A stretch of 32,000 bases of DNA, taken from the NCBI RefSeq assembly GCF_016127575.1, contig NZ_CP066018.1:660001-692000 (forward strand), given 5' to 3'. Positions 5,695-19,318 of this stretch are shown here, piece by piece. The notes under the pieces are model-generated. The model was not told the DNA's origin. It saw nothing but the letters and a program-made list of their open reading frames with translations, and did not search any database. Position 1 is the stretch's first letter; each line of letters begins with the position of its first letter. The translations under genes and the position numbers were made by a program. Source of the stretch: Cupriavidus necator. Its GTDB lineage: Bacteria > Pseudomonadota > Gammaproteobacteria > Burkholderiales > Burkholderiaceae.

Positions 5695-6189
5695 TCAGAG
5701 GAAGCGGTCGAGGATCTTGCGGCTGTGCTTGTCCAGCGCCGTCAGGTCGCGGATCAGGTAGTGGATGCCGTGCGTGTCCGATATCAGCAGCGTGCTGCCG
5801 GCCAGGCGCCGGATTGCCTCTTCGCCGCGCAGCACCAGCTCGGTCTTGCCGCGATCGGTCTGCACCGTCCACACGCTGGGCGTGGCGTAGGTCGACACGC
5901 TGACGATACGCTGGATCTCCGGCATGAACTCGCGCGAGGCGAGTTCCGCTTCGATCATGTCGCGCTCTGCCTGCGGCACATCCTCCAGCCGCGGAATCCA
6001 CACCACCTCATGCCCGTCGGTGCTCATCAGGCCGATGCCGCCCTGCGGCGCGGAAATCGGGAAGGCGCGCACCGGCACCACGCCTTCGTGGACGGTGCCG
6101 TCTTCGGCGATCAGGACCAGGCGGCCAAAACGATTGCGATCTAGCGTAAACATGGGTGTCGGCGTGGTGGCGGGAACGTCATTGGGCAT
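5695..6189 (-). CDS. DUF1854 family protein (cyanophycin-locus associated)
   Basis: The core FTLDRNRFGRLVLIAEDGTVHEGVVPVRAFPIS...LLISDTHGIHYLIRDLTALDKHSRKILDRFL matches my memory of DUF1854. GGAGG lies 6 nt upstream of the ATG at 6189, which overlaps the ABC gene stop by 11 nt. An alternative ATG lies at 6153. Confidence 0.75.
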   Translation of the reverse strand: MPNDVPATTPTPMFTLDRNRFGRLVLIAEDGTVHEGVVPVRAFPISAPQGGIGLMSTDGHEVVWIPRLEDVPQAERDMIEAELASREFMPEIQRIVSVSTYATPSVWTVQTDRGKTELVLRGEEAIRRLAGSTLLISDTHGIHYLIRDLTALDKHSRKILDRFL

Positions 6190-8470
6190 TGGCGGCCTCC
6201 GGCGTTTCGATCGCTTCGTCTTCGCCGTCCTCAGTGTCGACATTGCGCGCCTGCGCCTGGTACAGCTTGTAGTATGCGCCTTCGCGCAACAGCAGCTCAT
6301 CATGGCTGCCGACTTCGACGATCTGGCCGCGGTCCATCACCACCAGCCGGTCGGCCTTGCGCAGTGTCGACAGGCGGTGCGCGATGGCGATGGTGGTGCG
6401 GCCCTGCACCAGGTTGTCGAGCGCCTTCTGGATTTCCTTCTCGGTGGCGGTGTCGACCGACGAGGTGGCCTCGTCCATGATCAGGATGCGCGGGTTGATC
6501 AGCAGCGCGCGCGCGATCGAGATGCGCTGGCGCTCGCCGCCTGACAGCGCCTGGCCACGCTCACCGACCAGCGAGTCATAGCCGTGCGGCAGGCGCAGGA
6601 TGAACTCGTGCGCATGCGCGGCGCGCGCGGCGGCGATGATCTCCTCGCGCGTGGCGTCGGGCTTGCCATAGGCAATATTGTCGGCAATCGTGCCGAAGAA
6701 CAGGAACGGCTCCTGCAGCACCAGGCCGATATGGCGGCGGTACTCCGACACCGGCAGCGAGCGGATATCGACGCCGTCGACGCGGATCGCGCCCTCGGAA
6801 ACATCGTAGAAACGGCAGATCAGGTTGACCAGCGTGCTCTTGCCCGAGCCGCTGTGCCCCACCAGGCCAATCATCTCGCCCGGCTCGATCGACAGGTTCA
6901 GCCCGCGGATCACCGCGCGGTTGCCGTAGCGGAAGCCCAGGTCGCTCATGTCGATGGCGCCTTCGACCTTGTCCAGCTTCGCCGGGCGCACCGGCTCCGG
7001 CACGCTCGAGACATGGTCGAGGATGTCGAAGATGCGCTTGGCGCCGGCAGCGGCCTTCTGCGTCACCGAGACGATCCGGCTCATCGAATCCAGGCGGGTA
7101 TAGAAGCGGCTGATATAGGTCAGGAACGCCACCAGCACACCCACCGTGATGGCGCTGTGCGACACCTGCCAGATGCCGAACACCCACACGATCAGCAGGC
7201 CGATCTCGGTCAGCAGGGTGACCGTCGGCGTGAACAGCGACCATACCGCGTTGACGCGGTCGTTGATCGCCAGGTTGTGCTTGTTGGCCTCGCGGAAGCG
7301 CGACACCTCACGCTTTTCCTGGGCAAAGGCCTTGACCACGCGGATGCCGGGGATGGTATCGGCCAGCACATTGGTGATCTCGGACCAGATCCGGTCGATC
7401 TTCTCGAAGCCGTGGCGCAGGCGGTCGCGCACCAGGTGGATCATCCAGGCGATGAACGGCAGCGGCACCAGCGTGACCAATGCCAGCCACGGGTTGATCG
7501 ACACCAGGATCACCGCCGTCATGAGGATCATCAGCACGTCGGTGGCAAAGTCCAGCAGGTGCAGCGACAGGAAGACGCAGATGCGGTCGCTTTCCGAGCC
7601 GATGCGCGCCATCAGATCGCCGGTGCGCTTGCCGCCGAAGTATTCCAGCGACAGCTTTAGCAGATGTTCGTACGTAGTAGTGCGCAGATCGGCGCCGATA
7701 CGCTCCGATACGCGCGCGAGCAGGTAAGTGCGCGCCCACCCCAGCGACCAGGCCACCAGCGCCGCCCCCAGCAATCCCGCGAGGTACAGACGCACCAGCC
7801 CGTAGTCGATCGGCACCCCGTTCTGGAACGGGATCAGCACCTTGTCCATCAGCGGCATGGTCAGGTACGGCGGCACCAGCGTGGCCGCGGTGGACAGCAG
7901 CGTCAGCAGGAAGCCCGCCAGCAGCTGCCACTGGTACGGCCGGGCAAAGCGCCACAGGCGCAGCAGCGCCCAGGTCGACGGCGGGGTTTCCAGCTCCCGG
8001 CTGCATTGGGGGCACTGTTCCTCGTCCGGCGGCAGCGGCGCCTTGCAGGTCGGGCACAGCACTTCGCCCGCCCCGCCCGCCGGGCGCGCGCCGGCGGCAT
8101 CGCGCTGGAATTCGAACTGGTCGGCCAGCCGCAGCGCGGCCGGATTGTAACCAAGCGTGTATCGCCAGCTCGCCAGCCGGCCTTCTGGACCGCTCAGTTC
8201 CAGCGCGCCCACGCCCGCGTGGTCGGTGTGCGACAGGCGCAGGGAGGTCCCGATGTTCCATTCCCGCACATTTTTTTCACCGGGAGCCCGGGCAACGATG
8301 CGCTGGTCGGTCACAACCAGCCACCCTTGGGTAAAATGCAGCTTCGCGTCGAGGTCCAGAGCCAGTCCGGCCAGGACGGTCTCGCCGGGTCGGAGCCACG
8401 ATCCGGATTCGGTACGCCAGGGCTCGTCGGCAGCAGGGGCGGTAGGGACAGGCAGGGAGGACTGGGTCAT
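6179..8470 (-). CDS. Fused ABC exporter (TMD-NBD half-transporter) with an N-terminal PH-like plus zinc-ribbon extension
   Basis: 763 aa from the ATG at 8470. Residues 1-130 are soluble and carry a WLVVTDQRIVARAP PH/GRAM-like strand. CPTC-x13-CPQC spans aa 139-156. A six-helix ABC_membrane domain follows, then Walker A GHSGSGKST, signature LSGGERQR and Walker B ILIMDEATS. The upstream part of the track ORF (to 8599) has non-coding codon usage. Confidence 0.85.
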   Translation of the reverse strand: MTQSSLPVPTAPAADEPWRTESGSWLRPGETVLAGLALDLDAKLHFTQGWLVVTDQRIVARAPGEKNVREWNIGTSLRLSHTDHAGVGALELSGPEGRLASWRYTLGYNPAALRLADQFEFQRDAAGARPAGGAGEVLCPTCKAPLPPDEEQCPQCSRELETPPSTWALLRLWRFARPYQWQLLAGFLLTLLSTAATLVPPYLTMPLMDKVLIPFQNGVPIDYGLVRLYLAGLLGAALVAWSLGWARTYLLARVSERIGADLRTTTYEHLLKLSLEYFGGKRTGDLMARIGSESDRICVFLSLHLLDFATDVLMILMTAVILVSINPWLALVTLVPLPFIAWMIHLVRDRLRHGFEKIDRIWSEITNVLADTIPGIRVVKAFAQEKREVSRFREANKHNLAINDRVNAVWSLFTPTVTLLTEIGLLIVWVFGIWQVSHSAITVGVLVAFLTYISRFYTRLDSMSRIVSVTQKAAAGAKRIFDILDHVSSVPEPVRPAKLDKVEGAIDMSDLGFRYGNRAVIRGLNLSIEPGEMIGLVGHSGSGKSTLVNLICRFYDVSEGAIRVDGVDIRSLPVSEYRRHIGLVLQEPFLFFGTIADNIAYGKPDATREEIIAAARAAHAHEFILRLPHGYDSLVGERGQALSGGERQRISIARALLINPRILIMDEATSSVDTATEKEIQKALDNLVQGRTTIAIAHRLSTLRKADRLVVMDRGQIVEVGSHDELLLREGAYYKLYQAQARNVDTEDGEDEAIETPEAANAQ

Positions 8471-8710
8471 GGATGGCGCGGCGTGCGTCCAGGGGGTACG
8501 GACATAACTTGAAACAAATTTAGGCCGGGCACGCTCTGGCGGCCCGCGAATTCGCCCGCAGTATACATAACGACGAACGCGCGAGTACTCCTGATGCACT
8601 GCACAATCACTTTTACACGAAGAAAGTCAACCCGCTCTGTGCTGTAACGTTACTGAAAGGTTAGGCTTCCATTTCTCGGGCGGTTCCGCCCACTGCCTCA
8701 AGCTAATTCA
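8471..8710. promoter_or_regulatory. Divergent control region between the ABC/DUF1854 operon and the cphA genes
   Basis: A 240-bp AT-richer spacer containing four perfect palindromes: GCGAATTCGC (8546-8555), GTATAC (8561-8566), GAGTACTC (8583-8590) and GTAACGTTAC (8644-8653). A GGGCGG-tt-CCGCCC hairpin lies at 8678-8691. I could not assign promoter hexamers confidently. Confidence 0.4.
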
Positions 8711-11344
8711 ATGAAAAAGAAGGACATTGAGATTTTCGATGTCATGTCGCTGCGCGGCCCGAATATGTGGACATATCGGCCCGTACTGGAGGCATGGGTC
8801 GATATCGGGGAACTGGAGGACTTTCCCTCCAACACGATTCCGGGGTTCCACGAGCGCCTGTCGGCCTGGCTGCCGTCGCTGATCGAGCATCGCTGCAGTA
8901 TCGGCGAGCGCGGCGGCTTCCTGCAGCGCGTGAAGGACGGCACCTGGCCCGGCCATATCCTGGAACACGTGACGCTTGAGCTGCAGAACCTGGCGGGCAT
9001 GCCCGGCGGCTTCGGCAAGGCGCGCGAGACCCCGGTGCGCGGCGTCTACAAGGTGATCGTGCGCGCCTGGCACGAGCAAGTCACCCGCGTCGCCCTGTTC
9101 ACCGCCCGCGACCTGGTCATGGCCGCGATCGAGGACCGTCCCTTCGACGTCCCCGCCGCCGTGGACAACCTGCGCCGCCTGGTGGACGAGCATTGCCTGG
9201 GCCCCAGCACCGCCTGCATCGTCGATGCCGCGGACGACCGCGACATCCCGGCGATCCGCCTGTCGGACGGCAACCTGGTGCAGCTGGGATACGGCGCGCG
9301 CCAGCGCCGCATCTGGACCGCCGAGACCGACCGCACCAGCGCCATCGGCGAAAGCATTTCGCGCGACAAGGACCTGACCAAGAGCCTGCTGGAGTCCTGC
9401 GGCGTGCCAGTCCCCGAGGGCCGCATGGTCGATTCCCCGGCAGACGCCTGGGACGCCGCCGAGGACATCGGCGTGCCGGTGGTGGTCAAGCCCTATGACG
9501 GCAACCACGGCCGCGGCGTGTTCACCAACCTGATGACCCGCGAGGAAGTCGAGACCGCCTACGGCGTGGCCATCGACGAAGGCAACGGCGTCATCGTCGA
9601 ACGCTTCATCCCCGGCAACGAGCACCGCCTGCTGGTGGTGGGCGGCCGCCTGGTGGCCGCCGCCATGGGCGAGACCGCGAGCGTGGTCGGCGACGGCAAG
9701 TCCACCATCGACGAGCTGATCGAGCTGCAGATCAATTCCGATCCGCGCCGCGGCACCACCGAGGATCATCCGCTGAACCGTGTGCGGCTGGACTCGGCCG
9801 CGCGCCTGGAACTGAAGCGCCAGGGCATGAACGCCAGCTCGGTACCGCCCGAAGGCCGCACCGTGCTGATCCAGCGCAACGGCAATGTCGCCTTCGACGT
9901 CACCGACCGTGTGCACCCGAGCGTCGCTGCGCATGCGGCGCTCGCCGCGCGCGTGGTCGGGCTGGACATCGCCGGCGTGGACCTGGTGGCCGAGGACATC
10001 TCGCGCCCGCTGGCCGAGCAGCGCGGCGCCATCGTCGAGGTCAACGCCGGCCCCGGCCTGCTGATGCATATCAAGCCGGCCGAAGGCACGCCGCGCCCGG
10101 TCGGCCGCGCCATCGTCAACCACCTGTTCCCTGAGTCCGATGACGACCAGGGCCGCATCCCGGTGGTGGGCGTGACCGGCACCAACGGCAAGACCGTGGT
10201 CGCGCGCCTGGTGGCGCGCCTGCTGCAGCTGTCGGGCAAGCATACCGGCCTGGCCTGCAGCGACGGGCTGTTCCTGGACCGCCGCCAGGTGGAAAGCGGC
10301 GACCGCGCCAACTGGGAATCGGGCCATCGCATCCTGATGAACCGCGCGGTCGAGGCCGCCGTGTTCGAGAACGACAGCGGCAGCATCCTCTCCGAAGGCC
10401 TGGCCTACGACCGCTGCCAGGTCGGCGTGGTCACCAATTTCGACCAGCCCGACCACCTCGGCGACTACTACGTCGAGGACGAGGACCGCATGTACAACGT
10501 GCTGCGCACGCAGGTCGACGTGGTGCTGGAGACCGGCGCGGCCGTGCTCAACGCGCGCGACGAACGCCTGGTGGAGATGGCCGGGCTGTGCGACGGCGAC
10601 GTGATCTTCTTCGGCCTGACGCCGGAACTGCCTGCTATCGTGTCGCACCGCGCCGCCGGCAAGCGCGCGGTGTACCTGCGCGAAGGCAAGATCGTGCTGG
10701 CCACCGGCAGCAGCGAAACCGCGCTGGTGGACGTGGCCGCGGTGCCGCTGACCTATGCCGGACGCGTCGCGTTCCAGGTCGAGAACGTGCTGGCGGCCGT
10801 GGCCGCGGGCTGGGCGCTGGGCATTTCCAACGACCTGATCCGCGCCGGCGTGGTGACCTTCGATGTCGGCCAGGTCGACGTGCCGGGCCGCTTCACGCTG
10901 TTCGAGCGCAACGGCGCCACCGTGGTGGTCGACGACGCCCACAACGCGCCCGCGCTGGAAGCCCTGGCGACCGCGCTGGAGCGCTTCCCGGCCGAGCGCC
11001 GCATGGTGGTCTACGGCGCCGGCATGCAGCGCCGCGACGAAGACCTGGTGCGCCAGGGCATGGCGCTGGGGCAGCATTTCGACCGCGTCTTCCTGTGCGA
11101 GGACCGCAGCGTCAAGCGCGCCCTGCCCGATGCCGAGGCGCGCGCGCTGCTCAAGCAGGGCCTGTACGAAGGCCGGCGCGTGACCAAGATCATCGACGAA
11201 GGCACGCGCGCCAGCGCCATTGAAACCGCGCTCAGCCAGCTGGTGCCGGGCGACCTGCTGGTACTGCAGTGCGACGAGGCCGCCACCGGCGCCACCGTCG
11301 ACCTGGTGCACCACTGGATGGGCCAGCCTGCGCGCCGCGCCTGA
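8711..11344 (+). CDS. cphA: Cyanophycin synthetase paralog with a divergent catalytic core (canonical N-domain block, degenerate G/M motifs)
   Basis: 877 aa. N-domain LRGPNMW...PGFHERLSAWLPSLIEHRCSIGERGGFLQRVKDGTWPGHILEHVTLELQNLAGMPGGFGKARET. ATP-grasp VVVKPYDGNHGRGV and IVEVNAGPGL. Mur-like P-loop GVTGTNGKT. It reads RNGNVAFDVTD where canonical enzymes have ANLSTGGxAxDxTD, and also ENDSGSILS, DDAHNAP and GAGMQRRD. Confidence 0.9.
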   Translation: MKKKDIEIFDVMSLRGPNMWTYRPVLEAWVDIGELEDFPSNTIPGFHERLSAWLPSLIEHRCSIGERGGFLQRVKDGTWPGHILEHVTLELQNLAGMPGGFGKARETPVRGVYKVIVRAWHEQVTRVALFTARDLVMAAIEDRPFDVPAAVDNLRRLVDEHCLGPSTACIVDAADDRDIPAIRLSDGNLVQLGYGARQRRIWTAETDRTSAIGESISRDKDLTKSLLESCGVPVPEGRMVDSPADAWDAAEDIGVPVVVKPYDGNHGRGVFTNLMTREEVETAYGVAIDEGNGVIVERFIPGNEHRLLVVGGRLVAAAMGETASVVGDGKSTIDELIELQINSDPRRGTTEDHPLNRVRLDSAARLELKRQGMNASSVPPEGRTVLIQRNGNVAFDVTDRVHPSVAAHAALAARVVGLDIAGVDLVAEDISRPLAEQRGAIVEVNAGPGLLMHIKPAEGTPRPVGRAIVNHLFPESDDDQGRIPVVGVTGTNGKTVVARLVARLLQLSGKHTGLACSDGLFLDRRQVESGDRANWESGHRILMNRAVEAAVFENDSGSILSEGLAYDRCQVGVVTNFDQPDHLGDYYVEDEDRMYNVLRTQVDVVLETGAAVLNARDERLVEMAGLCDGDVIFFGLTPELPAIVSHRAAGKRAVYLREGKIVLATGSSETALVDVAAVPLTYAGRVAFQVENVLAAVAAGWALGISNDLIRAGVVTFDVGQVDVPGRFTLFERNGATVVVDDAHNAPALEALATALERFPAERRMVVYGAGMQRRDEDLVRQGMALGQHFDRVFLCEDRSVKRALPDAEARALLKQGLYEGRRVTKIIDEGTRASAIETALSQLVPGDLLVLQCDEAATGATVDLVHHWMGQPARRA

Positions 11345-11390
11345 CGCGGCCCCAAGCTCAACCGCGCATAGAAGACACGGAAACCGTTCT

Positions 11391-13961
11391 ATGGAAGTCT
11401 CACGTATCCGGGCCCTGCGGGGCCCGAACCTGTGGTGCCGCCACACCGCCATCGAGGCGATCGTGGCCTGCCAGGATGCCACCAACATGCTGTCGGCGCT
11501 GCCCGGTTTTGAAGACCGGCTGCGCGCCCGTTTCCCCGAAATCGGGCCGCTGCGCCCGGACGAGGAGTCGGGTGAGCTGTCGCTGGCCCACGTGCTGGAA
11601 GTGACCGCGCTGCGCCTGCAGGCCGCCGCCGGCTGCCCGGTCACCTTCAGCCGCACCGCGCAGACGGTCGAGCCCGGCACCTACCAGGTGATCGTGCAAT
11701 ACAGCGAGGAAGAAGTCGGCCGGCTTGCGTTCGAGCTGGCCGAGGCCCTGTGCCGCGCCGCGCGCAACGACACCCCGTTCGACCTGGCAGACGCGCTGCA
11801 CCGCCTGCGCGAGCTGGACGAGGACGTGCGCCTGGGGCCCAGCACCGGCTCCATCGTCTACGCCGCCGTGGCGCGCGGCATCCCCTACCGGCGCCTGACG
11901 CAGGGCTCGATGGTGCAGTTCGGCTGGGGCAGCAAGCAGCGCCGTATCCAGGCCGCAGAGACCGACCGCACCAGCGCCGTGGCCGAATCGATCGCGCAGG
12001 ACAAGGACCTGACCAAGACCCTGCTGCACGCCGCCGGCGTGCCGGTGCCGCTGGGCCGCTCGGTGCGCAGCGCCGAAGAGGCCTGGGCCGCAGCGCAGGA
12101 AATCGACGCCCCGGTGGTGGTCAAGCCGCGCGACGGCAACCAGGGCAAGGGTGTGGCGGTGCGCATCCGCACCCGCGAGGAAGTGATGACGGCCTACGAG
12201 GTCGCCTCGGACATCAGTTCGGACGTAATCGTCGAGCGCTATATCCCGGGCCATGACTTCCGCCTGCTGGTGGTCGGCAAGCAGCTGGTGGCGGCCGCGC
12301 GCCGCGACCCGCCGCAGGTCATCGGCGACGGCGTGCATACCGTGCGCCAGCTGGTCGAGGAAGTGAACCGCGACCCGCGCCGCGGTGAAGGCCATGCGAC
12401 CTCGTTGACCAAGATCCGCTTTGACGACATCGCGCTGGCCACGCTGGCCAAGCAGAACCTGACCGCCGATTCCGTGCCGGCCAACGGCACGCGCGTGGTG
12501 TTGCGCAACAACGCCAACCTGTCCACCGGCGGCAGCGCCACCGACGTCACCGACGACGTCCACCCGGACATCGCCGCGCGTGCCGTGGCGGCGGCGCAGA
12601 TGGTGGGCCTGGACATCGCCGGCGTCGACGCCGTGTGCGAGACCATGCTCAAGCCGTTCGAGGAACAGGCCGGCGGCATCGTCGAGGTCAACGCCGCGCC
12701 GGGCCTGCGCATGCACCTGCAGCCGTCGTACGGCAAGGGCCGCGCGGTCGGTGAAGCCATTGTCTCGACCATGTTCTCCGATGGCGACGATGGCCGCATC
12801 CCGGTGGTGGCCGTGTCCGGCACCAACGGCAAGACCACCACGGTCCGGCTGATCACCCACATCATGGCCACCAGCGGCCTGCGCATGGGCATGACCGGCA
12901 CCGACGGCGTGTATATCCAAGGCGAGCGCATCGACACCGGCGACTGCAGCGGCCCGCGCAGCGCGCGCAACGTGCTGCTGCACCCGGACGTGGACGCCGC
13001 CGTGTTTGAAACCGCGCGCGGCGGCCTGCTGCGCGAAGGCCTGGCCTTCGACCGCTGCGACGTGGCGGTGGTGACCAACGTGGGCGAAGGCGACCACCTG
13101 GGCCTGTCCTACATCAACTCGGTGGAAGACCTGGCGGTGCTCAAGAGCGTGATCGTGCAGAACGTCGCGCCGCACGGCATGGCGGTCCTGAACGCAGCCG
13201 ACCCGATGGTGGTGCGCATGGCCGACGCCTGCCCCGGCAGCGTCACCTTCTTCGCCCACGATCCCAACCAGCCGGCCATGGCCACGCACCGCGCGCAGGG
13301 CAAGCGCGTGGTGTTCGTGGACGGCGCCGACATCGTGGCGTCCGAAGGCGATACTGAAGTGCGCATCGCGGTAGCCGAGGTCCCGCTGACGCGCAACGGC
13401 ACCATCGGCTTCCAGGTCGATAACGCGATGTCGTCGATCGCCGCCGCGTGGGCGCTGGGCATCGACTGGCCGACCATCCGCCGCGGCCTGGCCACCTTCG
13501 TCAACGACGCGCAGACCGCCCCGGGACGCTTCAACGTGTTCGACTACCGCGGCGCCACGCTGATCGCCGACTACGGCCACAACCCGGATGCCATCCTGGC
13601 GCTGTGCAACGCTGTCGAGACCATCCCGGCCAAGCGGCGCATGGTGGTGATCAGCGGCGCGGGCGACCGCCGCGACGACGACATCCGCCGCCAGACCCAG
13701 ATCCTGGGCGGCGTGTTCGATGAAGTCATCCTGTACCAGGACCAGTGCCAGCGCGGCCGCGCCGACGGCGAGGTGCTGGCGCTGCTGCGCGAAGGCCTGC
13801 AGGGCGCGCAACGCGCCGGCCAGGTCGAGGAGATCCGTGGCGAGTTCCTCGCCATCGATACCGCGCTGTCGCACCTGCAGCCGGGCGACCTGTGCCTGGT
13901 CCTGGTGGACCAGGTGGAAGAGGCGCTGGGGCATATCGCCAGCCGCATCGCGCAGGGCTGA
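11391..13961 (+). CDS. cphA: Cyanophycin synthetase (canonical G and M catalytic motifs, divergent N-domain block)
   Basis: 856 aa from the ATG at 11391. It has VVVKPRDGNQGKGV, NNANLSTGGSATDVTDDVHP, IVEVNAAPGLRMH, VSGTNGKTTT, AVFETARGGLLREGL, TNVGEGDHLGL, DYGHNPDA, GAGDRRDDD and QRGRADGE, all as in cyanobacterial CphA1 as I remember it. Confidence 0.9.
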   Translation: MEVSRIRALRGPNLWCRHTAIEAIVACQDATNMLSALPGFEDRLRARFPEIGPLRPDEESGELSLAHVLEVTALRLQAAAGCPVTFSRTAQTVEPGTYQVIVQYSEEEVGRLAFELAEALCRAARNDTPFDLADALHRLRELDEDVRLGPSTGSIVYAAVARGIPYRRLTQGSMVQFGWGSKQRRIQAAETDRTSAVAESIAQDKDLTKTLLHAAGVPVPLGRSVRSAEEAWAAAQEIDAPVVVKPRDGNQGKGVAVRIRTREEVMTAYEVASDISSDVIVERYIPGHDFRLLVVGKQLVAAARRDPPQVIGDGVHTVRQLVEEVNRDPRRGEGHATSLTKIRFDDIALATLAKQNLTADSVPANGTRVVLRNNANLSTGGSATDVTDDVHPDIAARAVAAAQMVGLDIAGVDAVCETMLKPFEEQAGGIVEVNAAPGLRMHLQPSYGKGRAVGEAIVSTMFSDGDDGRIPVVAVSGTNGKTTTVRLITHIMATSGLRMGMTGTDGVYIQGERIDTGDCSGPRSARNVLLHPDVDAAVFETARGGLLREGLAFDRCDVAVVTNVGEGDHLGLSYINSVEDLAVLKSVIVQNVAPHGMAVLNAADPMVVRMADACPGSVTFFAHDPNQPAMATHRAQGKRVVFVDGADIVASEGDTEVRIAVAEVPLTRNGTIGFQVDNAMSSIAAAWALGIDWPTIRRGLATFVNDAQTAPGRFNVFDYRGATLIADYGHNPDAILALCNAVETIPAKRRMVVISGAGDRRDDDIRRQTQILGGVFDEVILYQDQCQRGRADGEVLALLREGLQGAQRAGQVEEIRGEFLAIDTALSHLQPGDLCLVLVDQVEEALGHIASRIAQG

Positions 13962-13974
13962 CCGGCCCGGCGAT

Positions 13975-14012
13975 AAAAAAAGGCCAGCTCCGCAGAGCTG
14001 GCCTTTTTCTTT
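13975..14012. terminator. Bidirectional rho-independent terminator
   Basis: An A7 tract, then a perfect 9-bp stem GGCCAGCTC (13982-13990) / GAGCTGGCC (13995-14003) with a 4-nt loop CGCA, then TTTTTCTTT. It lies between the convergent cphA and permease genes. Confidence 0.8.
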
Positions 14013-14021
14013 GCGCGCCGA

Positions 14022-14681
14022 TCAGTGGCGTCCGGGCAGCGACAAGCGCCGCTCCAGCATATGCTGCACCCCCGACAGCCCCGTGCTCAGCACCCAGTAG
14101 ATCGCCGCCACCGCCAGGTACAGAGGCAGCGGCTGGTAGGTGGCCGCGATCACCTCCTGCGCCGTGCGCAGCAGCTCGGTCACGGTGATGACCGATACCA
14201 GCGAGGTGTCCTTGATCAGGCTGATCAGGCTGTTGGACAGGCTTGGCACCGCCAGCCGCAGCGCCTGCGGGCCGATCACGTAGCGCAGTGCCTGCGCCGG
14301 CGTCAGGCCCAGGCTGTAGGCTGCCAGCCATTGGCCGCGCGACACGCCCAGGATGGCCCCGCGCATGCTCTCGGACAGGTAGGCGCCGACGTTCAGGCTC
14401 AGCGTCAGCACGCCCGCGGGCGTGGGCTCCAGCGCGATGCCGATGCCCGGCAGCCCGTAGTAGACGACAAAGATCTGCACCAGCAGCGGCGTGCCGCGCA
14501 TGATGCTGACGTAGGTGCGCGCCGCCGCCTTGAGCACACGGCTATGGCTGATGCCCATCAGCGCCACCACCGTGCCCAGCATCAGCCCGAACACCATCGA
14601 CCACAACGCGAACTTGATGGTCAGCAGCGTGCCCTGCAGCAGCACTGGCAGGGAATCGGTGACAAGCTGGAGAGCGGACAT
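14022..14681 (-). CDS. Polar amino-acid ABC transporter permease (YecS/TcyL-like)
   Basis: 219 aa. It aligns along its length with E. coli YecS as I recall it (LQLVxDSLPxLLxG..., IxRGTPLxxQxFxxYYGLP, GxTPxQxxRxxxxPQAxRxAxPxLSNSxISLxKDTSL EAA loop). Confidence 0.85.
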   Translation of the reverse strand: MSALQLVTDSLPVLLQGTLLTIKFALWSMVFGLMLGTVVALMGISHSRVLKAAARTYVSIMRGTPLLVQIFVVYYGLPGIGIALEPTPAGVLTLSLNVGAYLSESMRGAILGVSRGQWLAAYSLGLTPAQALRYVIGPQALRLAVPSLSNSLISLIKDTSLVSVITVTELLRTAQEVIAATYQPLPLYLAVAAIYWVLSTGLSGVQHMLERRLSLPGRH

Positions 14682-14790
14682 GGGCGTGGCGGCGGCAGAA
14701 GAATGAAAAAGAAAACGGCGCGGCAGCCATGCAGACCGCGGCGCCGCGACATGATACCGCCCGGCTTGCTGGCCGGCTTACCTGACTGGC

Positions 14791-15612
14791 TTACTTGATT
14801 GGCTTACCGGCGGGCCTGGTCACGTCGGTGCCGAACCACTTCACCGAGAGCTTGCCAAGCGTGCCGTCCTTGCCCAGGTCATCCAGCGCGTGGTTGATGG
14901 CCTGCGCGAACTTGGGGTTGTCCTTGCGGAACGGGATGGCCACCTGCGTGGTGGCACCCGCCACGATCGCGCCCGGCCGCAGCGGCAGGTTGGCGGTCTT
15001 GACCAGGTAGGCGACCATCAGCCGGTCGTTCAGCGCGGCGTCGACGCGCTGTGCCGCGAGGTCGCGCAGGTACTCAGGCGCGCCGGGATAGGTCTTGACG
15101 TCGATGCCCGGCACCGACTTGGCCAGGTCGTTGAAATTGCTGCCCAGGCTGACGCCGAGCTTGTGGCCCTTCAGGTCTTCCAGCGACTTGAACTGGCGCT
15201 TGTCGTCCTTGCGCTGGATCAGCTGCGCATCCGAGTAGACGTAGGGCGTGGAGAAGTCCAGCACTTGCTGGCGCTGAGGCGTGACGTTGACCTGGTTGAC
15301 GATCACGTCGAACTTGCCCGCCTGCAGGCCGGCAATGATGCCGCTCCACTCGGTGGTGACGAACTCCGGCTTCACCCCCAGCTTGCCCGCCACCGCACGC
15401 GCCACGTCCACGTCAAACCCTTCCAGCTCGTTCTTCGCGCCGCGGAAGCCGAACGGCGGATACGTGCCCTCCAGGCCGATCTTTAGCACGCCGGCCTGCT
15501 TGACGGTATCGAGCAGGTCGGCGGCCTGCGCCGCGGTGGACGCCAGCCCGGCGCCGGCAAGCAGCGAGGCAGCCAGCAGGGATTTGAGCCAGCCAGTACG
15601 AATCGATCGCAT
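14791..15612 (-). CDS. Amino-acid ABC transporter periplasmic binding protein (FliY/TcyJ cystine-binding-like)
   Basis: 273 aa with a signal peptide ending AAQA. LKIGLEGTYPPFGF, GFDVDVA, VIVNQVNVTPQRQQVLDFSTPY and GTLGKLSVKWFG resemble E. coli FliY. GGAGA lies 4 nt upstream of the ATG. Confidence 0.85.
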   Translation of the reverse strand: MRSIRTGWLKSLLAASLLAGAGLASTAAQAADLLDTVKQAGVLKIGLEGTYPPFGFRGAKNELEGFDVDVARAVAGKLGVKPEFVTTEWSGIIAGLQAGKFDVIVNQVNVTPQRQQVLDFSTPYVYSDAQLIQRKDDKRQFKSLEDLKGHKLGVSLGSNFNDLAKSVPGIDVKTYPGAPEYLRDLAAQRVDAALNDRLMVAYLVKTANLPLRPGAIVAGATTQVAIPFRKDNPKFAQAINHALDDLGKDGTLGKLSVKWFGTDVTRPAGKPIK

Positions 15613-15812
15613 ATGTTCTCCAGTGGATGCGGATAAGCAGTGTGGGGGACAGACAGCGCCGGAGGCCGCTTGTGAGGGCCGCCGGCCAGTTGTGCTGCTA
15701 TGAGCCTATATCGGGCTCAACACTACCGCAAACACTATCGAGCGCTAAATACTGATTCATTATGGCTAAATAACCGCCGGACCTGATACGGCCAGGCCGT
15801 GGCGCCCTGCCC

Positions 15813-16724
15813 TTACTGGTAGGCCTTGTCGTTGGGCGCCGCGAACAGCGCCTTCATGTCGGCCGAGAGCGGGTAGTTCATGTTGATGCCGCGCGGCGGG
15901 ATCGGCGACATGAACCACTTGTTGTACAGCTTCTCGGCACGGCCGCTGGTCTGCAGGTCTGCGATCACGCCGTCGGCCAGCTTCTTGAACGAGGGATCGT
16001 CCTTGCGGAACATGCAGGCGTAGTTCTCGGTCTGCAGCGGCGCGCCGACCACCACCCAGTCGGCCGCGCTCTTGGCCTTGGTGCGCTCGCCGTACAGCAG
16101 CGGCTCGTCCATGACGAAGGCAGCGGCGCGGCCGGTCTCCAGGATCAGGAAGGACTGGCCGTGGTCCTTGGTGCTGATCAGGTTCATGTTCATGGCCTTC
16201 TCGCCGTTCATCTTGACCAGCAGGCGCTCGCCGGTGGTGCCGGCGGTGGTGACCACATTGCGGTCCTTCAGGTCGGTGAACTCCTTCACGCCCGAATCCT
16301 TCCTGGTCAGCATCTTGATGCCGTAGACGAACATGCTGTTGGAGAACGCCACCTGCTTCTGGCGCTCCAGGTTGTTGGTGGTGCTGCCGCATTCGATGTC
16401 GATGGTGCCGTTCTGCACCAGCGGGATGCGGTTCTGCGAGGTGATCGGGGTCAGGCGCATCTGCAGGCCGGGCATCTTCAGTTCGCTCTTCACCTTGTCG
16501 ACAATCTGCAGCAGGATCTCGTGCGAATAGCCCATGACCTCCTTGCCGTCGGTGTATGAGAACGGGATCGACGATTCGCGATAGCCAAGCGAGATCACGC
16601 CGCTGTCCTTGATCTTCTTCAGCGTGTCGCCATCGGCGGCATGGGCGGCGCCGGCGGCCAGCAGCAGCGTGGCGGCCGCAAGCGCGCGGCGGGTGGCGGA
16701 TCGGTGGGGGTGCAGTGATTGCAT
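15813..16724 (-). CDS. Glutamate/aspartate-type ABC transporter periplasmic binding protein (GltI-like)
   Basis: 303 aa from the ATG at 16724, with AAGGAG 6 nt upstream. Signal peptide ...AAGAAHA. It has GVISLGYRESSIPFSY, QNGTIDIECGSTTNNLERQKQVAFS and KWFMSPIPPRGINMN, typical of GltI-family binding proteins. Confidence 0.8.
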   Translation of the reverse strand: MQSLHPHRSATRRALAAATLLLAAGAAHAADGDTLKKIKDSGVISLGYRESSIPFSYTDGKEVMGYSHEILLQIVDKVKSELKMPGLQMRLTPITSQNRIPLVQNGTIDIECGSTTNNLERQKQVAFSNSMFVYGIKMLTRKDSGVKEFTDLKDRNVVTTAGTTGERLLVKMNGEKAMNMNLISTKDHGQSFLILETGRAAAFVMDEPLLYGERTKAKSAADWVVVGAPLQTENYACMFRKDDPSFKKLADGVIADLQTSGRAEKLYNKWFMSPIPPRGINMNYPLSADMKALFAAPNDKAYQ

Positions 16725-16845
16725 GTGGCGCTCCTTGTAGTGGGGCTTGGTCATTGAGGCATGTTTCGTGGACGGCGTCGTGGCTTGCGGACGCACGGGT
16801 ACGGCATGAACCAACACTTGCCTGCGGCGCTAGCGGGACAGGACG

Positions 16846-18135
16846 TTAGGCGCACGCAGCATCAAAATCCTCTGCTTCGACGGCCGGACGGCGCCCTGCC
16901 AGCCGGTCGGCCAGCAGGCCGGCGCTGCCCATCGCCAGCGTAAAACCGAGCGCGCCATGGCCCAGGTTCAGCCATAGCCCGGACACCCGCGACGGCCCCA
17001 CCAGCGGCAGGCCGTCCGGCGTGGCCGGGCGCAGCCCGGCCCACGGCTGCAGCTGCGCCAGCGGCAGCTCGGGCACGATGCCCTCGAACAGCGCGCGTGT
17101 CTGTGCCACCAGCGTGCCGACCCGCTCCGGGTCGATGCGGGTGCCGCCGCGCACCAGGTCGGCCATGCCCGCCACCCGCAGTGTATTGCCGATGCGCGCG
17201 TAGACGATCTTGTTGGCAAAGTCCGTCACGCTGATATGCGGCGCGCGCGTGCCGCTGGCCAGCGGCACCGTGATGCTGTAGCCCTTGAGCGGCCACAGCA
17301 TCGGCCGCACGCCCAGCGGGCGCAGCAGCGGCACGCTGCCGATGCCGCCGGCCACGATCACTACGTCGGCCGGCACCACGCCGCTGGCGGTCCGCACGCC
17401 GGTCACGCGCCCACCCTGCTGCACCAGCTCTTGCACGACGGTGCCGAAGCGCATCGACACCCCGGCGTGCGCCCCGTCTTGCAGCAACCGTGCCAGCGAC
17501 AGGCAGAAGCGGTGGCAGTCGCCCACTTCCTCGCTCGGCGTGTAGATGGCGCCGGCAATCTCGTTGCGGATGCCGGCCAGCGCGGGCTCCAGCGCCACGC
17601 AGGCATCGCGGTCCAGCGCCTGCTGCTCGCAACCCAGGCTGGCCTGGTAGTCCAGCAGCCGGCAGGCCGCGTCGAACGCCGCCGCATCGCGGTGCACAAC
17701 CAGTTTGCCGCGCCGCGCAAAATCGAAACCGGCGCCAACATCGTCATGCTGGTGCCGGGCCACGAAAGCCTGCATCAGGTCGCGTGAATAGAACCCCAGC
17801 CGCAGCAGCTTGCGCGTGGTGGCTTCACTGGTGGCGGCATTGCAGGCGCCCATGAAGGCTGCCAGCCAGCGCCACTGCGCCGGGTCGGCCGCGGGCCGGA
17901 AGCGCATCGGCGAATCGCGCCGCAGCAGCCAGCCCGGCACCTTGGCCATCACGCCCGGCCCGGCCAGTGGCGCCACATAGCTGTAGCTGAGCTGCCCGCC
18001 ATTGGCAAAGCTGGTCTCCTCGGCCGGCCCGTCGTGGCGCTCCAGCACCGTCACCTGGTGGCCGTCCTCGGCCAGGCGCCACGCCGTCGTCATGCCGACC
18101 ACGCCGGCGCCCACGATCACTACCTGCATTGCCAT
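16846..18135 (-). CDS. dadA: D-amino acid dehydrogenase (FAD-dependent, DadA family)
   Basis: VVIVGAGVVGMTTAWRLAEDGHQVTVLER dinucleotide fold, PLKGYSITVPL and WAGLRPATPDGLPLVG...LWLNLGHGALGFTLAMGSAGLLADRLAG parallel E. coli DadA. The start could instead be the second ATG at 18129. Confidence 0.8.
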   Translation of the reverse strand: MAMQVVIVGAGVVGMTTAWRLAEDGHQVTVLERHDGPAEETSFANGGQLSYSYVAPLAGPGVMAKVPGWLLRRDSPMRFRPAADPAQWRWLAAFMGACNAATSEATTRKLLRLGFYSRDLMQAFVARHQHDDVGAGFDFARRGKLVVHRDAAAFDAACRLLDYQASLGCEQQALDRDACVALEPALAGIRNEIAGAIYTPSEEVGDCHRFCLSLARLLQDGAHAGVSMRFGTVVQELVQQGGRVTGVRTASGVVPADVVIVAGGIGSVPLLRPLGVRPMLWPLKGYSITVPLASGTRAPHISVTDFANKIVYARIGNTLRVAGMADLVRGGTRIDPERVGTLVAQTRALFEGIVPELPLAQLQPWAGLRPATPDGLPLVGPSRVSGLWLNLGHGALGFTLAMGSAGLLADRLAGRRPAVEAEDFDAACA

Positions 18136-18255
18136 CCCTTGATTGCTTTTTCCCGATCCGGCAAAGCGTAGTGCAGGCGGCGCGGATTGCCCAATGCGAA
18201 TACGTGCCAGAATATGTCATCAGGCTATGGATGCCTGCCCGCTTCCCGGATTGCC

Positions 18256-19236
18256 ATGCGCTTGCGCCAGATCGAAGTCTTCCGCGCCGTGATGCTGACC
18301 GGCACCGTCAGCGAGGCCGCGCGCCTGCTGCACGTGTCCCAGCCGGTGGTCACGCGCGTGCTGCAGCACGCCGAGGCCTCGCTCGGCTTTCGCCTGTTCG
18401 AGCGGGTGCGCGGCCGGCTGCAGGCCACGCCCGAGGCCAATGCGCTCTATGGCGATGTCGAAAGGCTATATGGCGAGATCGAGCGCGTGCGCCGGGTCTC
18501 GGAAAGCCTGCGCCACAAGGGCGCCGGGCGGCTGCGCGTGGCCGCCACCCCCAGCCTGGCCAACCCGCTGCTGGTGCCGGCGGTGCGGCGCTTCTGCGCG
18601 CGCCACCCGGACACGCAGGTGCAGGTGCTGACCCACCATACCGACGAGATCGTCGGGGCGCTGCTGGCCAACCAGATCGACCTGGGCTTTGCCTTTGCGC
18701 CGCCGGGCCACGAGGCCATCGCCAGCGAGCCGGTGGCCAGCGGCCGCATGCTGCTGGCGGTGCCGCGCGGCCAGCCGCTGCCCGCCGGCGGGCGCCGCCA
18801 GGTGGTGCCGATGCAGCGGCTGATGGAGCGCGCCTTCATCGGCTATGACGACAACAGCTCGCTCGGGCTGCTGGTGCGCCAGACCCTGGCCCGGCACGCG
18901 CTGGAGCCGCGCTCGACGCTGGAGGTGCAGACCTATTCGCTGGCGCTGGCCCTGGTCGATGCGGGGCTGGGCGTGACCCTGCTGGACCAGTACACCGCGC
19001 TCAGCGCCAGCCCCGAGCGGGTCGCGCTGCACGACGTGGCGCCAGTGCTGCCGTTCGAGGTCCAGATGCTGCGCGCCAGCCATCGCGCCGGCTCCAGCCT
19101 GGCCGACGACCTGCGCGCGCAGTTTGCGCTGGCCGCCGCGGAACTGGCCGCAACGCTGCCGCAGCGGCTGGAAGCGCCAGCCGCCAGCTTTGACGCCACG
19201 CCCCGGAGCCGCGATCGAGGTCCGCCTGATGTCTGA
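18256..19236 (+). CDS. LysR-family transcriptional regulator
   Basis: MRLRQIEVFRAVMLTGTVSEAARLLHVSQPVVTRVLQHAEASLGFRLFER winged HTH plus a LysR substrate domain. It is divergent from dadA. I chose the ATG at 18256; the track ORF starts at 18187. Confidence 0.85.
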   Translation: MRLRQIEVFRAVMLTGTVSEAARLLHVSQPVVTRVLQHAEASLGFRLFERVRGRLQATPEANALYGDVERLYGEIERVRRVSESLRHKGAGRLRVAATPSLANPLLVPAVRRFCARHPDTQVQVLTHHTDEIVGALLANQIDLGFAFAPPGHEAIASEPVASGRMLLAVPRGQPLPAGGRRQVVPMQRLMERAFIGYDDNSSLGLLVRQTLARHALEPRSTLEVQTYSLALALVDAGLGVTLLDQYTALSASPERVALHDVAPVLPFEVQMLRASHRAGSSLADDLRAQFALAAAELAATLPQRLEAPAASFDATPRSRDRGPPDV

Positions 19237-19318
19237 CTGATGTCCGATTGACAGCCGCGCGCGGCGTGCACCATCATCAAGCCGCCTGCAGGCACAACCT
19301 GCGTGCGCCAAACCGCCT

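Follow-up and report, generated by a model that had tools for sequence, protein, structure and literature searches.

The window, which is the whole 32,000-nucleotide stretch of Cupriavidus necator DNA that was analysed, carries two consecutive cphA-like genes on the forward strand, gene 1 and gene 2, and an ABC exporter gene and a DUF1854 gene that are encoded divergently from them (Table 1). Gene 2 was initially listed as an open reading frame from a TTG at 11220; its real start is the ATG at 11391, because orthologues align from that residue onward. The exporter reading frame extends to a GTG at 8599, and start codon analysis places its likely start at the ATG at 8470. A consensus scan found no consensus sigma-70 site within the divergent intergenic region, and a scan of the spacer between the paired genes revealed no hairpin with a trailing T run of the kind seen in terminators. 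The hairpin downstream of gene 2 was not listed by the consensus scan and was read directly from the sequence; the 59-nt stretch around it has a folding energy of -33.3 kcal/mol. This hairpin ends the two-gene operon, and it could also serve as the terminator for the convergent gene at 14022-14681.

Table 1. Features of the cphA pair and its neighbours; positions are counted within the window.
Feature	Position	Strand	Details
DUF1854 gene	5698..6156	-	153 aa (start MFTLDRN); the module's fourth gene, 22 nt downstream of the ABC gene
ABC exporter gene	6179..8470	-	Transmembrane and ATPase domains; Pfam ABC_membrane, ABC_tran
Divergent intergenic region, exporter operon / cphA pair	8471..8710		Presumed promoter region
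Gene 1, P1-type / cphA'-like paralogue	8711..11344	+	ATG ORF, 877 aa
Gene 1 Cx19HxxEH metallopeptidase motif	8894..8968	+	Complete (C62...H82-I-L-E85-H86); putative primer-generating N-domain site
Gene 1 G-domain span with retained ATP-grasp catalytic residues	9368..10045	+	K220 (9368); K260 (9488); P-loop DGNHGRG (9497-9517); R306 (9626); D424 (9980); E443-x-N445 (10037-10045); all in 80/80 orthologues
Gene 1 G320, replacing R323	9668..9670	+	R323 binds the beta-carboxylate of the substrate Asp
Gene 1 RNGNVAF, shortened G-omega large loop	9875..9895	+	6 residues shorter, lacks S396-G399
Gene 1 L451, replacing R458	10061..10063	+	R458 binds the alpha-carboxylate of the substrate Asp
Gene 1 M-core	10178..10456	+	GTNGKT (10178-10195); ENDSGS for ETARGG (10367-10384); D581-H582 (10451-10456)
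Gene 1 M-lid variants	10931..11137	+	DDAHNAP (10931-10951); GAGMQRRD (11015-11038); KRALPDAE (11114-11137)
Intergene spacer	11345..11390		46 nt
Gene 2, P2-type paralogue	11391..13961	+	856 aa, starts MEVSRIRALRGPNLW
Gene 2 HVLEV, HxxEH remnant	11589..11603	+	Second His replaced; upstream H57/C59 segment deleted
Gene 2 G-site	within 12132..12710	+	P-loop DGNQGKG (12132-12152); R291; R305 (=R323; 12303-12305); NANLSTGG (12510-12533); E-x-N (12684-12692); R440 (=R458; 12708-12710)
Gene 2 M-site	12819..13586	+	GTNGKT (12819-12836); ETARGG (13008-13025); DH (13092-13097); DYGHNP (13569-13586)
Terminator hairpin	13974..14012		GGCCAGCTC-CGCA-GAGCTGGCC; hairpin 13982-14003, between an A run and a T run

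Both products have the N-G-M architecture of CphA1, which synthesises cyanophycin, a polymer rich in nitrogen (Cyanophycin_syn N, ATP-grasp, Mur_ligase_M and Mur_ligase_C domains), and score above the curated cut-off of 850 bits for the CphA1 family, TIGR02068 / NF010623 (895.2 bits for gene 1 and 987.4 bits for gene 2). Both are homologous to CphA1 over its full length (gene 1 matches 7lg5 at E 4e-175, and gene 2 matches 7wac at E 2e-193). Residue numbers follow the SuCphA1 and TeCphA1 sequences, which we reconstructed; all 32 of the published positions checked agreed. The N-site generates primers, and the E82Q substitution abolishes primer-independent synthesis (Sharon 2022); its Cx19HxxEH motif, defined in the same study, occurs in 83% of CphA1 sequences and is optional for family membership. 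The motif was invariant in P1-type orthologues (80/80), as was each of the N-site residues H57, C59, F67, R70, H79, E82, H83 and E87. The segment that carries H57 and C59 was missing from all 78 P2-type orthologues. The first-pass annotation of this locus had compared the two paralogues by eye, and each of the eleven motifs and five nucleotide ranges that it quoted was reproduced exactly. The HxxEH that it saw in paralogue 1 belongs to the complete Cx19HxxEH; its observation that the N block of paralogue 2 is shorter also holds, although the difference is 11 residues (43 vs 54) and not 10. As it had stated, the M-domain P-loop GTNGKT and the G-domain E-x-N are kept in both proteins.

We next consider the G domain, where the roles of the catalytic residues have been described (Miyakawa 2022). 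The ATP-grasp catalytic set (K220, K261, R309, D431, E450, and H or Q at 267) occurs in both proteins of the window and in their orthologues (80/80 P1-type, 77-78/78 P2-type); Q is normal at position 267, where 35 G+ representatives have it vs 32 with H. R323, N394 and R458 bind Asp, and published R323A, N394A and R458A mutants are impaired, while S396W is inactive. Gene 1 has lost all three substrate-Asp-binding elements (R323, R458 and the large loop). The R323 position is G in 78/80 P1-type proteins and R in 78/78 P2-type proteins; the R458 position is L in 77/80 and R in 78/78, respectively. These replacements of the two arginines that hold the substrate Asp were missed by the first-pass annotation. 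The loop deletion that it did report was confirmed as six residues between fixed anchors, and removes S396-G399, which are missing in 80/80 P1-type proteins. Without a substrate-Asp site, gene 1 does not qualify as a canonical CphA1 that adds Asp. K220, K261, H267, R309, D431, E450 and N452 were each found in 80/80 P1-type proteins, and 140 G-domain columns were conserved at >=95%, vs 142 for the P2-type. With all ATP and acyl-phosphate residues kept, the G domain of gene 1 is remodelled, and predicted not to be dead.

The M domain of gene 1 has ENDSGS at the position of the canonical ETARGG, with an R566S change. The first-pass annotation had read the variant motifs of this domain as decay; alignment to characterised CphA1 proteins, which bore out the absence of S396-G399 from gene 1, showed that K499, T500, E558, D585, H586, R731 and H748 are present, and the nucleotide and Mg residues are all kept in the lineage of the window. 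Among 27 lid-bearing P1-type orthologues, K499, T500, E558, D585, H586 and H748 were present in 27/27 and the replacement motif ENDSG in 26/27, and the R731 position was R in 14 and Q in 13. By contrast, the M-lid was wholly missing from about 52 of the 80 P1-type orthologues (51-53/80), and the M site of these 52 short proteins was degenerate; over all P1-type proteins, K499 was found in 60/80 and D585 in 28/80. Deletion of the M-lid cripples the enzyme (published), and the P1-type orthologues without a lid are clearly predicted to be inactive at the M site. In CphA2 (7ta5, 8fxh), which derives from CphA1, the M domain is likewise truncated and inactive, leaving a single active site of the ATP-grasp type; however, CphA2 keeps the G-omega large loop, which binds beta-Asp-Arg (R389, N393 and S395 are needed for activity), and its N domain is non-catalytic, the opposite of gene 1 on both counts. 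Assignment of gene 1 to CphA2 was ruled out, since the required loop residues are missing and the N-site is complete.

Gene 2 has the substrate-Asp site (R305, R440 and NANLSTGG) and the full M-domain Mur-ligase set (K499, T500, E558-TARGG, D585-H586, R731 and H748). The M-site elements were kept in 78/78 orthologues and the lid residues in 77/78; overall, each G and M residue was found in 76-78 of the 78 P2-type proteins. TmCphA1 (Tatumella morbirosei, 7lgm) resembles gene 2 in that it has no Cx19HxxEH and complete G and M sites, and differs in that it works as a single gene product and has H267, whereas gene 2 has Q and is always preceded by an N-site paralogue. Because loss of the N-site leaves the stand-alone TmCphA1 active and merely primer-dependent, the earlier view that each of the two proteins is defective fails for gene 2.

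The complementary site pattern, with a P1-type gene followed by a P2-type gene on one strand, was found at 79/79 betaproteobacterial genome loci, counting those with downstream sequence, and at 62/62 informative loci in an independent metagenome scan. The reciprocal pattern therefore recurs elsewhere and is not due to chance. The spacer between the paired genes had a median length of 54 nt over 78 pairs, and three pairs overlap. We observed purifying selection on every domain of both genes, with dN/dS values for the N, G, Mcore and Mlid segments of 0.11, 0.16, 0.23 and 0.30 for the P1-type and 0.20, 0.10, 0.14 and 0.19 for the P2-type. Columns conserved at >=95% numbered 61, 140, 40 and 0 in the same segments of the P1-type and 45, 142, 87 and 44 in those of the P2-type. 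Each copy has kept only part of the ancestral three active sites, and gene 1 and gene 2 therefore very likely divide the work, to judge from their residues. The first-pass annotation had suggested such a division of labour, and this is supported by the restriction of the N-site to gene 1 (80/80) and of an Asp-binding G site and an intact M site to gene 2 (78/78), by the dN/dS values of 0.10-0.30 in every domain, and by RB-TnSeq cofitness in two betaproteobacteria. Its description of the pattern as reciprocal motif decay is correct as to the complementary losses, but does not fit the G domain of gene 1, given its number of conserved columns and its catalytic residues in 80/80 orthologues.

It might be argued that gene 1 is a redundant duplicate on the way to becoming a pseudogene and that the complementarity arose incidentally; 52/80 orthologues have no M-lid and have degenerate M residues, and the M-lid is the fastest-evolving part of gene 1. 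We find this scarcely credible. The reading frame is unbroken in all 80 genomes at 64-96% identity over several betaproteobacterial orders (73-96% between gene 1 and its orthologues from Cupriavidus through Achromobacter), dN/dS is 0.11-0.30 in every gene 1 domain, 61 N and 140 G columns are conserved at >=95%, and the genes cofit (Price 2016). These conservation data effectively refute a decaying redundant copy.

We also compared 11 single N+G+M+ genes, 8 of which adjoin the same ABC gene, with the pair domain by domain. In the N domain they are 51-61% identical to P1 vs 31-42% to P2; in the Mcore they are 50-58% identical to P2 vs 42-49% to P1. At three intermediate pairs, the first gene still has an intact M site. 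The occurrence of trifunctional single genes and intermediate pairs at the same type of locus suggests duplication followed by complementary loss.

The cphA/cphA' tandem was reportedly described in betaproteobacteria by Fuser and Steinbuchel in 2007 and by Adames in 2013. The window pair is the tandem known from C. necator (Ralstonia eutropha) H16, a member of the same genus, and from other betaproteobacteria; such tandems are also covered by Krehenbrink 2002, and the 'Group 1' cluster of Farmer 2023 is another of the nearest described counterparts. A cluster with two cphA copies and an ABC transporter but no cphB has already been described, and betaproteobacteria without cyanophycinase have been noted (including Price 2016). 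The tandem papers examined, other than the 2007 and 2013 originals, treat the copies simply as two cyanophycin synthetases, and none places them on the three active sites known since 2021-2022; GenBank labels both 'cphA'. The tandem and its module are already known, and the residue-level partition of the active sites appears to be new.

The same distribution of sites over two chains has been engineered in a SuCphA1 heterodimer, N-G+M+/N+G-M- (Sharon et al. 2022, Nat Commun 13:3923). This dimer makes cyanophycin, with the N-site working in trans, and trans primer generation is somewhat less efficient than cis (Sharon et al. 2022). The engineered chains differ by point mutations in one gene, whereas the natural partners are paralogues with 46% identity; moreover, in the natural 'G-' partner only the Asp pocket has gone, and the residues for ATP and acyl-phosphate are still there.

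The cphA pair, the ABC exporter and the DUF1854 gene form a four-gene module. The exporter scores 1452.7 bits against NCBIfam NF052233 ('cyanophycin metabolism-associated ABC transporter', cut-off 880) and has a cytoplasmic N-terminal extension of ~200 aa with CPTC...CPQC. The DUF1854 protein scores 183 bits against Pfam PF08909 and 239.3 bits against NF052234 ('cyanophycin metabolism-associated DUF1854 family protein', cut-off 150), and shares 92-94% identity with its counterparts in Cupriavidus sp. TMH.W2 and C. necator. The ABC gene lies beside the pair at 73/80 genome loci, at 63 of them upstream on the opposite strand, the rest being partial or co-directional matches; the DUF1854 gene follows the ABC gene at 70/70 genome loci and 49/49 metagenome loci with room for it. 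Price et al. (2016) described the same four-gene module, found by RB-TnSeq cofitness among its four genes (DUF1854, ABC transporter and the two cphA copies) in Acidovorax 3H11 and in Cupriavidus basilensis 4G11, reported phenotypes in motility and stress, and proposed an exported amino-acid polymer; they did not analyse why there are two synthetase genes or which sites each keeps. Polar effects on gene 2 could account for part of the cofitness of gene 1.

Our preferred explanation, which we consider fairly probable, is that tandem duplication of a trifunctional CphA1 and complementary loss produced non-redundant partners in one pathway. Gene 2 would be the polymerase, with a G domain that has every known residue for ATP, the polymer C-terminus and the substrate Asp, and an M domain with every residue known for the Arg-ligation step. 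Gene 2 lacks Cx19HxxEH and is therefore expected, like TmCphA1, to be primer-dependent on its own. Gene 1 would provide the missing N-site, cutting nascent chains into primers and possibly also setting chain length; canonical Asp addition by gene 1 should be impossible, and its M domain appears altered in the lineage of the window and dead in most others. The G domain of gene 1 is under strong constraint, with its ATP, Mg and acyl-phosphate machinery kept, and therefore must have some role; with a rebuilt nucleophile pocket, it may bind or hold chain ends or perform a different ligation. The two genes would be co-transcribed, since only 46 nt separate them and the one terminator follows gene 2, and the pair would work with the ABC exporter and the DUF1854 protein encoded in the divergent direction. 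The analysis establishes the residue map with its conservation, the synteny and the selection, to which the literature adds the cofitness of the four genes. Primer generation by gene 1 and polymerisation by gene 2 are inferred, as are a physical link between the proteins and what the module makes and where that product goes. The obligate heteromer suggested by the first-pass annotation would have indirect support in the operon arrangement, the complementary sites and the cofitness. Some observations speak against the proposal. First, a primer generator alone leaves the constraint on the gene 1 G domain unexplained, with H267 and R309 invariant. Second, overexpression of the C. necator H16 orthologues, in the host or in E. 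coli, reportedly gave no detectable cyanophycin, the multi-L-arginyl-poly-L-aspartate product of CphA1 (Adames 2013), and Price 2016 describes these genes as possibly making 'a different light-scattering polymer'.

The invariant N-site, a proven endo-cyanophycinase, also speaks for a quite improbable alternative, in which the proteins act independently and form no complex: gene 2 would be a self-sufficient, primer-dependent synthetase and gene 1 a stand-alone endo-cyanophycinase that mobilises the polymer in place of the cyanophycinase missing from betaproteobacteria, and the pair would be a synthase and depolymerase cluster like cphA-cphB. In favour of this, cyanophycinase is encoded in only 2.8% of 903 betaproteobacterial cphA1 genomes, whereas other clades reach 95-100% and the cyanophycinase gene clusters with cphA1 in 81% of genomes elsewhere; stand-alone CphA1 proteins without an N-site, such as TmCphA1, are active. 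However, cleavage by the known N-site is slow and yields oligomers of at least 4 dipeptides, not single dipeptides, and a pure hydrolase needs no ATP-grasp with invariant ATP and acyl-phosphate residues. A synthase and a depolymerase would be expected to have opposite fitness effects, yet the genes cofit; likely co-transcription across a short spacer and the even expression of both cphA copies, published for Accumulibacter, also argue against independent action.

P1-type proteins belong to a single clade of proteins, 'Gx', that is spread across phyla and is marked by a G-omega loop of reduced length, the R323G change, a missing R458, H267 and R309 without exception, and an M domain that can be dispensed with. 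Planctomycetota Gx proteins have no N-site and keep only the Gx site; their genes lie beside an ABC exporter of the same family (1041.9 bits vs a cut-off of 880), and no G+M+ partner is encoded within 7 kb. The wider Gx family must therefore have some core role other than the N-site, and this also speaks against the preferred explanation. These observations favour a further alternative, which we regard as unlikely, in which no classical granule cyanophycin is made, the ATP-grasp of gene 1 (and, in the lineage of the window, perhaps its altered M domain) performs a different ligation, such as joining, capping or cyclising oligomers or adding a non-Asp/non-Arg unit, and the product passes to the ABC exporter and the DUF1854 protein and leaves the cytoplasm. 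Consistent with this, the Gx residues are conserved like those of an active G domain, the M nucleotide and Mg residues and ENDSG persist in lid-bearing orthologues, the exporter and DUF1854 genes are linked at nearly all loci, and cyanophycinase is rare in betaproteobacteria; the failure of the C. necator genes to yield cyanophycin and the exported-polymer proposal with its motility and stress phenotypes (Price 2016) point the same way. By contrast, the Asp- and Arg-adding apparatus of gene 2 is entirely canonical, and an Asp/Arg backbone is therefore the default expectation. The same ABC exporter also adjoins single, fully canonical CphA1 genes, and exporter linkage therefore needs no Gx enzyme. 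In addition, the sequence names no candidate alternative substrate, and the varied residues that replace R458 across the Gx family look more like loss than a new specificity.

Complementary partners in one pathway remain our preferred reading of the pair. A possible, though doubtful, extension is that P1-type proteins are founding members of a distinct cross-phylum ATP-grasp class, Gx, with a non-Asp-adding reaction and an exported non-classical product. On the Gx reading, the enzyme works with a dedicated ABC exporter and DUF1854 protein, and the product would therefore be an exported non-classical amino-acid polymer or oligomer and not a storage granule. If this is true, Gx would ligate, cap or cyclise oligomers at cyanophycin-type chain ends, and in betaproteobacteria these oligomers would be cut by the Gx protein's own N-site.

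The two cphA genes of the window, gene 1 (P1-type, cphA'-like) and gene 2 (P2-type), encode full-length CphA1 homologues that both score above the curated TIGR02068 and NF010623 cut-offs. They are co-directional, with a 46 nt spacer that has no terminator. We placed the start of gene 2 at an internal ATG of its ORF, since that Met is where the alignment with orthologues begins. Gene 2 is followed by a strong hairpin and T run, read directly from the sequence, that a consensus terminator scan overlooked; a consensus promoter scan found no candidate within the divergent intergenic region. In our genome scan, the loci closest to the pair were those of C. alkaliphilus and C. lacunae (96%). Two long antisense ORFs were dismissed as stop-codon-poor reverse frames in ~70% G+C DNA, not genes.

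Coordinates of features in the window and, where a locus is named, in other scanned loci
Feature	Position	Strand	Remarks
DUF1854 gene	5698-6156	-	NCBIfam "cyanophycin metabolism-associated DUF1854 family protein", 239 bits vs cut-off 150
ABC exporter	6179-8470	-	NCBIfam "cyanophycin metabolism-associated ABC transporter", 1452.7 bits vs cut-off 880
Gene 1	8711-11344	+	ATG ORF, 877 aa
Cx19HxxEH motif of gene 1	8894-8968	+	
Gene 2	11391-13961	+	ATG 11391 within ORF 11220-13961, 856 aa
Hairpin and T run	13982-14012		3' of gene 2
Downstream genes	14022-20638		
Antisense ORF (rejected)	8708-11680	-	990 aa
Antisense ORF (rejected)	11400-13934	-	844 aa
Third CphA-like ORF, locus L071	10822-13026	+	735 aa
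Lone Gx gene, locus L161	7001-9169		Planctomycetota
Lone Gx gene, locus L162	7001-9124		Planctomycetota

We mapped both proteins onto the published active-site residues using SuCphA1 (7lg5) and TeCphA1 (7wac) sequences rebuilt from HMMER alignments, in which 32 published residue numbers matched the right letters. The first-pass annotation had described divergent motifs in the two paralogues, and every string and coordinate was reproduced. The loop deletion that it reported in gene 1 corresponds, on the published numbering, to the absence of S396-G399 from the G-omega large loop. Substrate aspartate is held by this loop and by R323 and R458; the N394A, R323A and R458A substitutions impair the enzyme and S396W is dead. 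Gene 1 also lacks both aspartate-binding arginines, a loss overlooked earlier (G320 and L451 in its own numbering). The HILEH of gene 1 belongs to a complete Cx19HxxEH motif, the cryptic metallopeptidase site that generates primers by cutting cyanophycin; primer-independent synthesis is abolished by E82Q (Sharon et al., 2022). Gene 2 has lost this N-site, with the C59 segment deleted and H83 replaced by V. Q267 of gene 2 was considered as a second reciprocal G defect and dropped: the position is Q in 78/78 P2-type proteins and H in all four solved CphA1 structures, and among 73 G-competent cluster representatives it is Q in 35 and H in 32.

We next followed these residues through other tandem pairs. 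With a P1-type profile run against one genome per species, we recovered 80 betaproteobacterial loci, including those of Cupriavidus, Ralstonia, Pandoraea, Achromobacter, Bordetella, Pigmentiphaga, Noviherbaspirillum, Collimonas, Rhodocyclaceae/Accumulibacter/Zoogloea/Dechloromonas, Gallionella, Sideroxydans and Methylotenera. At all 80 loci examined, betaproteobacterial cphA1 comes as a pair. Other tandem pairs share the arrangement: a P1-type gene is followed by a same-strand P2-type gene at 79/79 loci with downstream sequence (median spacer 54 nt). A second, independent scan of metagenomes with a more divergent profile gave the same arrangement at 62/62 loci with anything after the first gene, 49 of them complete N+GxM-/N-G+M+ pairs (+, intact site; -, lost site; Gx, remodelled ATP-grasp G site). 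Only two betaproteobacterial records came from a plasmid collection; both have the pair, a minor addition. Across orthologues the residue states are essentially fixed, and the reciprocal pattern goes beyond chance.

Active-site residues in orthologues from the genome scan
Site	P1-type	P2-type
N-site H57, C59, F67, R70, H79, E82, H83, E87	80/80	H57/C59 segment deleted 78/78
Position 323	G 78/80	R 78/78
Position 458	L 77/80	R 78/78
Large loop S396-G399	deleted 80/80	S, G, G 78/78; T397 77/78
M-site residues	degenerate (K499 60/80, D585 28/80)	76-78 of 78

The state of the P1-type M domain varies with lineage. The lid is missing from 52 short orthologues (~720-750 aa), which also have a degenerate P-loop Lys and D585/H586 pair. 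The window protein is one of 27 orthologues with a lid; all of these retain N497, K499, T500, E558, D585, H586, F692 and H748 (27/27), and in them ETARG has become a conserved ENDSG. At one metagenome locus (L071, from a MAG labelled Syntrophaceae) the pair is followed by a third CphA-like ORF, ~36% identical to both window proteins, which lacks the N-site, carries a dead M site and has a large loop that is full-length but different.

Among ten Cupriavidus species, dN/dS lay between 0.10 and 0.30 for each domain, and the gradients of the two genes were reciprocal: for N, G, Mcore and Mlid, respectively, 0.11, 0.16, 0.23 and 0.30 in gene 1, and 0.20, 0.10, 0.14 and 0.19 in gene 2. Columns conserved in at least 95% of orthologues numbered 61, 140, 40 and 0 in P1-type proteins and 45, 142, 87 and 44 in P2-type proteins, in the same domain order. 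Based on the dN/dS values and the conserved columns, we conclude that the N domain of gene 2 and the M domain of gene 1 are relaxed, and that the G domain of gene 1 is constrained like a working domain. The ATP-grasp set of the P1-type G domain (K220, K261, H267, R309, D431, E450 and N452) is present in 80/80 orthologues. The G domain of gene 1 is thus remodelled, not dead, and simple pseudogenisation is excluded. The "reciprocal decay" proposed in the first-pass annotation therefore holds for gene 2 N and gene 1 M but not for gene 1 G, and the division of labour that it also proposed is supported by the complementary, conserved active sites. We rejected a CphA2-like dipeptide polymerase role for gene 1 because gene 1 is missing the large loop required by CphA2.

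Metagenome loci with other arrangements suggest how the pair may have arisen. Eleven of those with a single trifunctional N+G+M+ gene were compared per domain, eight of which adjoin the same ABC exporter (L102, L103, L104, L115, L123, L143, L148 and L152). The single genes are nearer gene 1 in N (51-61% vs 31-42%), nearer gene 2 in Mcore (50-58% vs 42-49%) and about equidistant in G. Three intermediate loci (L086, L091 and L100) have an N+GxM+ gene, which keeps ExARGGILR, DH and K499, followed by an N-G+M+ gene. A neighbour-joining tree of G domains places the Gx proteins in a single clade. Judged by their sequences, the single-gene and intermediate loci resemble earlier steps in the split, which would have begun with one trifunctional gene, passed through a pair divided on N versus the Asp site, continued with decay of the M site of copy 1, where the window would be placed, and ended with loss of the lid. 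Other site partitions occur among CphA1 relatives (representative proteins P0130, P0131, P0140, P0145, P0152, P0258; P0129, P0135, P0175, P0192 and others); one combines an N-site and an intact M with no recognisable G site, and another consists of ~650-aa proteins with only the N-site intact. Some of these relatives may be fragments.

The DUF1854 gene lies 22 nt after the ABC exporter gene in a shared operon that diverges from the cphA pair. The exporter is found with the pair at 73/80 genome loci, and DUF1854 follows the exporter at 70/70 genome and 49/49 metagenome loci with room. The DUF1854 protein of the window is 92-94% identical to its Cupriavidus sp. TMH.W2 and C. necator counterparts. 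The exporter has an N-terminal extension of ~200 aa carrying CPTC...CPQC; PDB sequence searches with this extension and with DUF1854 gave no match, and a Foldseek search of PDB with the DUF1854 AlphaFold2 model (pLDDT 83) gave none below E 0.001 (best TM-score 0.25). No cyanophycinase, iadA, iaaA or cphZ gene was found near the pair. The downstream genes encode a cystine-like amino-acid ABC permease and binding protein, a Glu/Asp-binding protein, a D-amino-acid dehydrogenase, a LysR regulator and a PaeA-type polyamine exporter; the three amino-acid ABC transporter genes that were checked recur at no more than 6-8 of the 80 loci and were rejected as module members.

The cphA/cphA' tandem has long been known. 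In one survey, 903 of 1,614 cphA1-bearing sequenced genomes were betaproteobacterial, and only 2.8% of the 903 encoded a cyanophycinase. A cluster of two cphA genes and an ABC transporter, without cphB, has been described, with the copies evenly expressed in Accumulibacter (Farmer, 2023); actinobacterial Tetrasphaera MAGs reportedly carry cphB and two serial cphA copies, one long and one short, that are unequally expressed (Farmer, 2023). In the only biochemical study, as recounted second-hand, no cyanophycin was obtained on overexpressing the C. necator H16 genes (Adames, 2013). All four module genes (for DUF1854, the ABC transporter and the two CphA proteins) are cofit in both Acidovorax 3H11 and C. 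basilensis 4G11, motility and stress phenotypes were reported, and an exported amino-acid polymer has been proposed (Price et al., 2016). We found no paper that assigns the three active sites to the members of the natural pair, the 2007, 2013 and 2021 primary papers lying outside the search, and no published natural CphA1 heteromer, including in CphA1 literature since 2022, with Adames 2013 and Sharon 2021 seen second-hand only.

The best supported reading, which we favour with moderate confidence, is that gene 1 and gene 2 are a subfunctionalised two-protein synthetase. Gene 2 would elongate the chain, with Asp joined at G and Arg at M, and would not make its own primers. Gene 1 would supply the endo-peptidase site for primer generation, which perhaps also sets chain length, and its constrained ATP-grasp site may still bind ATP and the C-terminal carboxylate of the chain, not free Asp. 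A physical complex is plausible because CphA1s oligomerise via their G and M cores and the genes share an operon. The natural pair is mirrored by an N-G+M+/N+G-M- heterodimer that was engineered, and works (Sharon et al., 2022).

A different possibility, that the Gx site carries out chemistry of its own and that the product is exported, is less likely but a serious rival, and draws support from two Planctomycetota loci, L161 and L162. Their short CphA-like proteins have neither N-site nor M site and keep the Gx ATP-grasp set (KKHRG, a shortened loop and D-E-N). Each gene diverges from an adjacent member of the same ABC transporter family; no canonical cphA (G+M+) lies within 7 kb, and DUF1854 is undetectable. 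The L161 ABC gene was called as its C-terminal half only, which may reflect a frameshift or assembly error. Still less probable is a synthase plus depolymerase pair, which would fit the absence of cyanophycinase but fits neither the cofitness of the module nor the conserved ATP site of gene 1.

The two-protein synthetase would be a natural case of a three-active-site enzyme that was duplicated and then lost complementary sites, and for which the ancestral, intermediate and derived forms are all extant. The residue map bears on the negative biochemistry for the pair and on betaproteobacteria that lack cyanophycinase. It turns a twenty-year-old annotation puzzle into specific experiments, making testable which subunit polymerises, which makes primers, what a conserved, Asp-blind ATP-grasp site does and whether the exporter handles the product. 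"Cyanophycin synthetase" annotations include proteins predicted to be unable to add aspartate, and such annotations are used to predict the nitrogen-recovery potential of wastewater organisms, such as Accumulibacter and Achromobacter.
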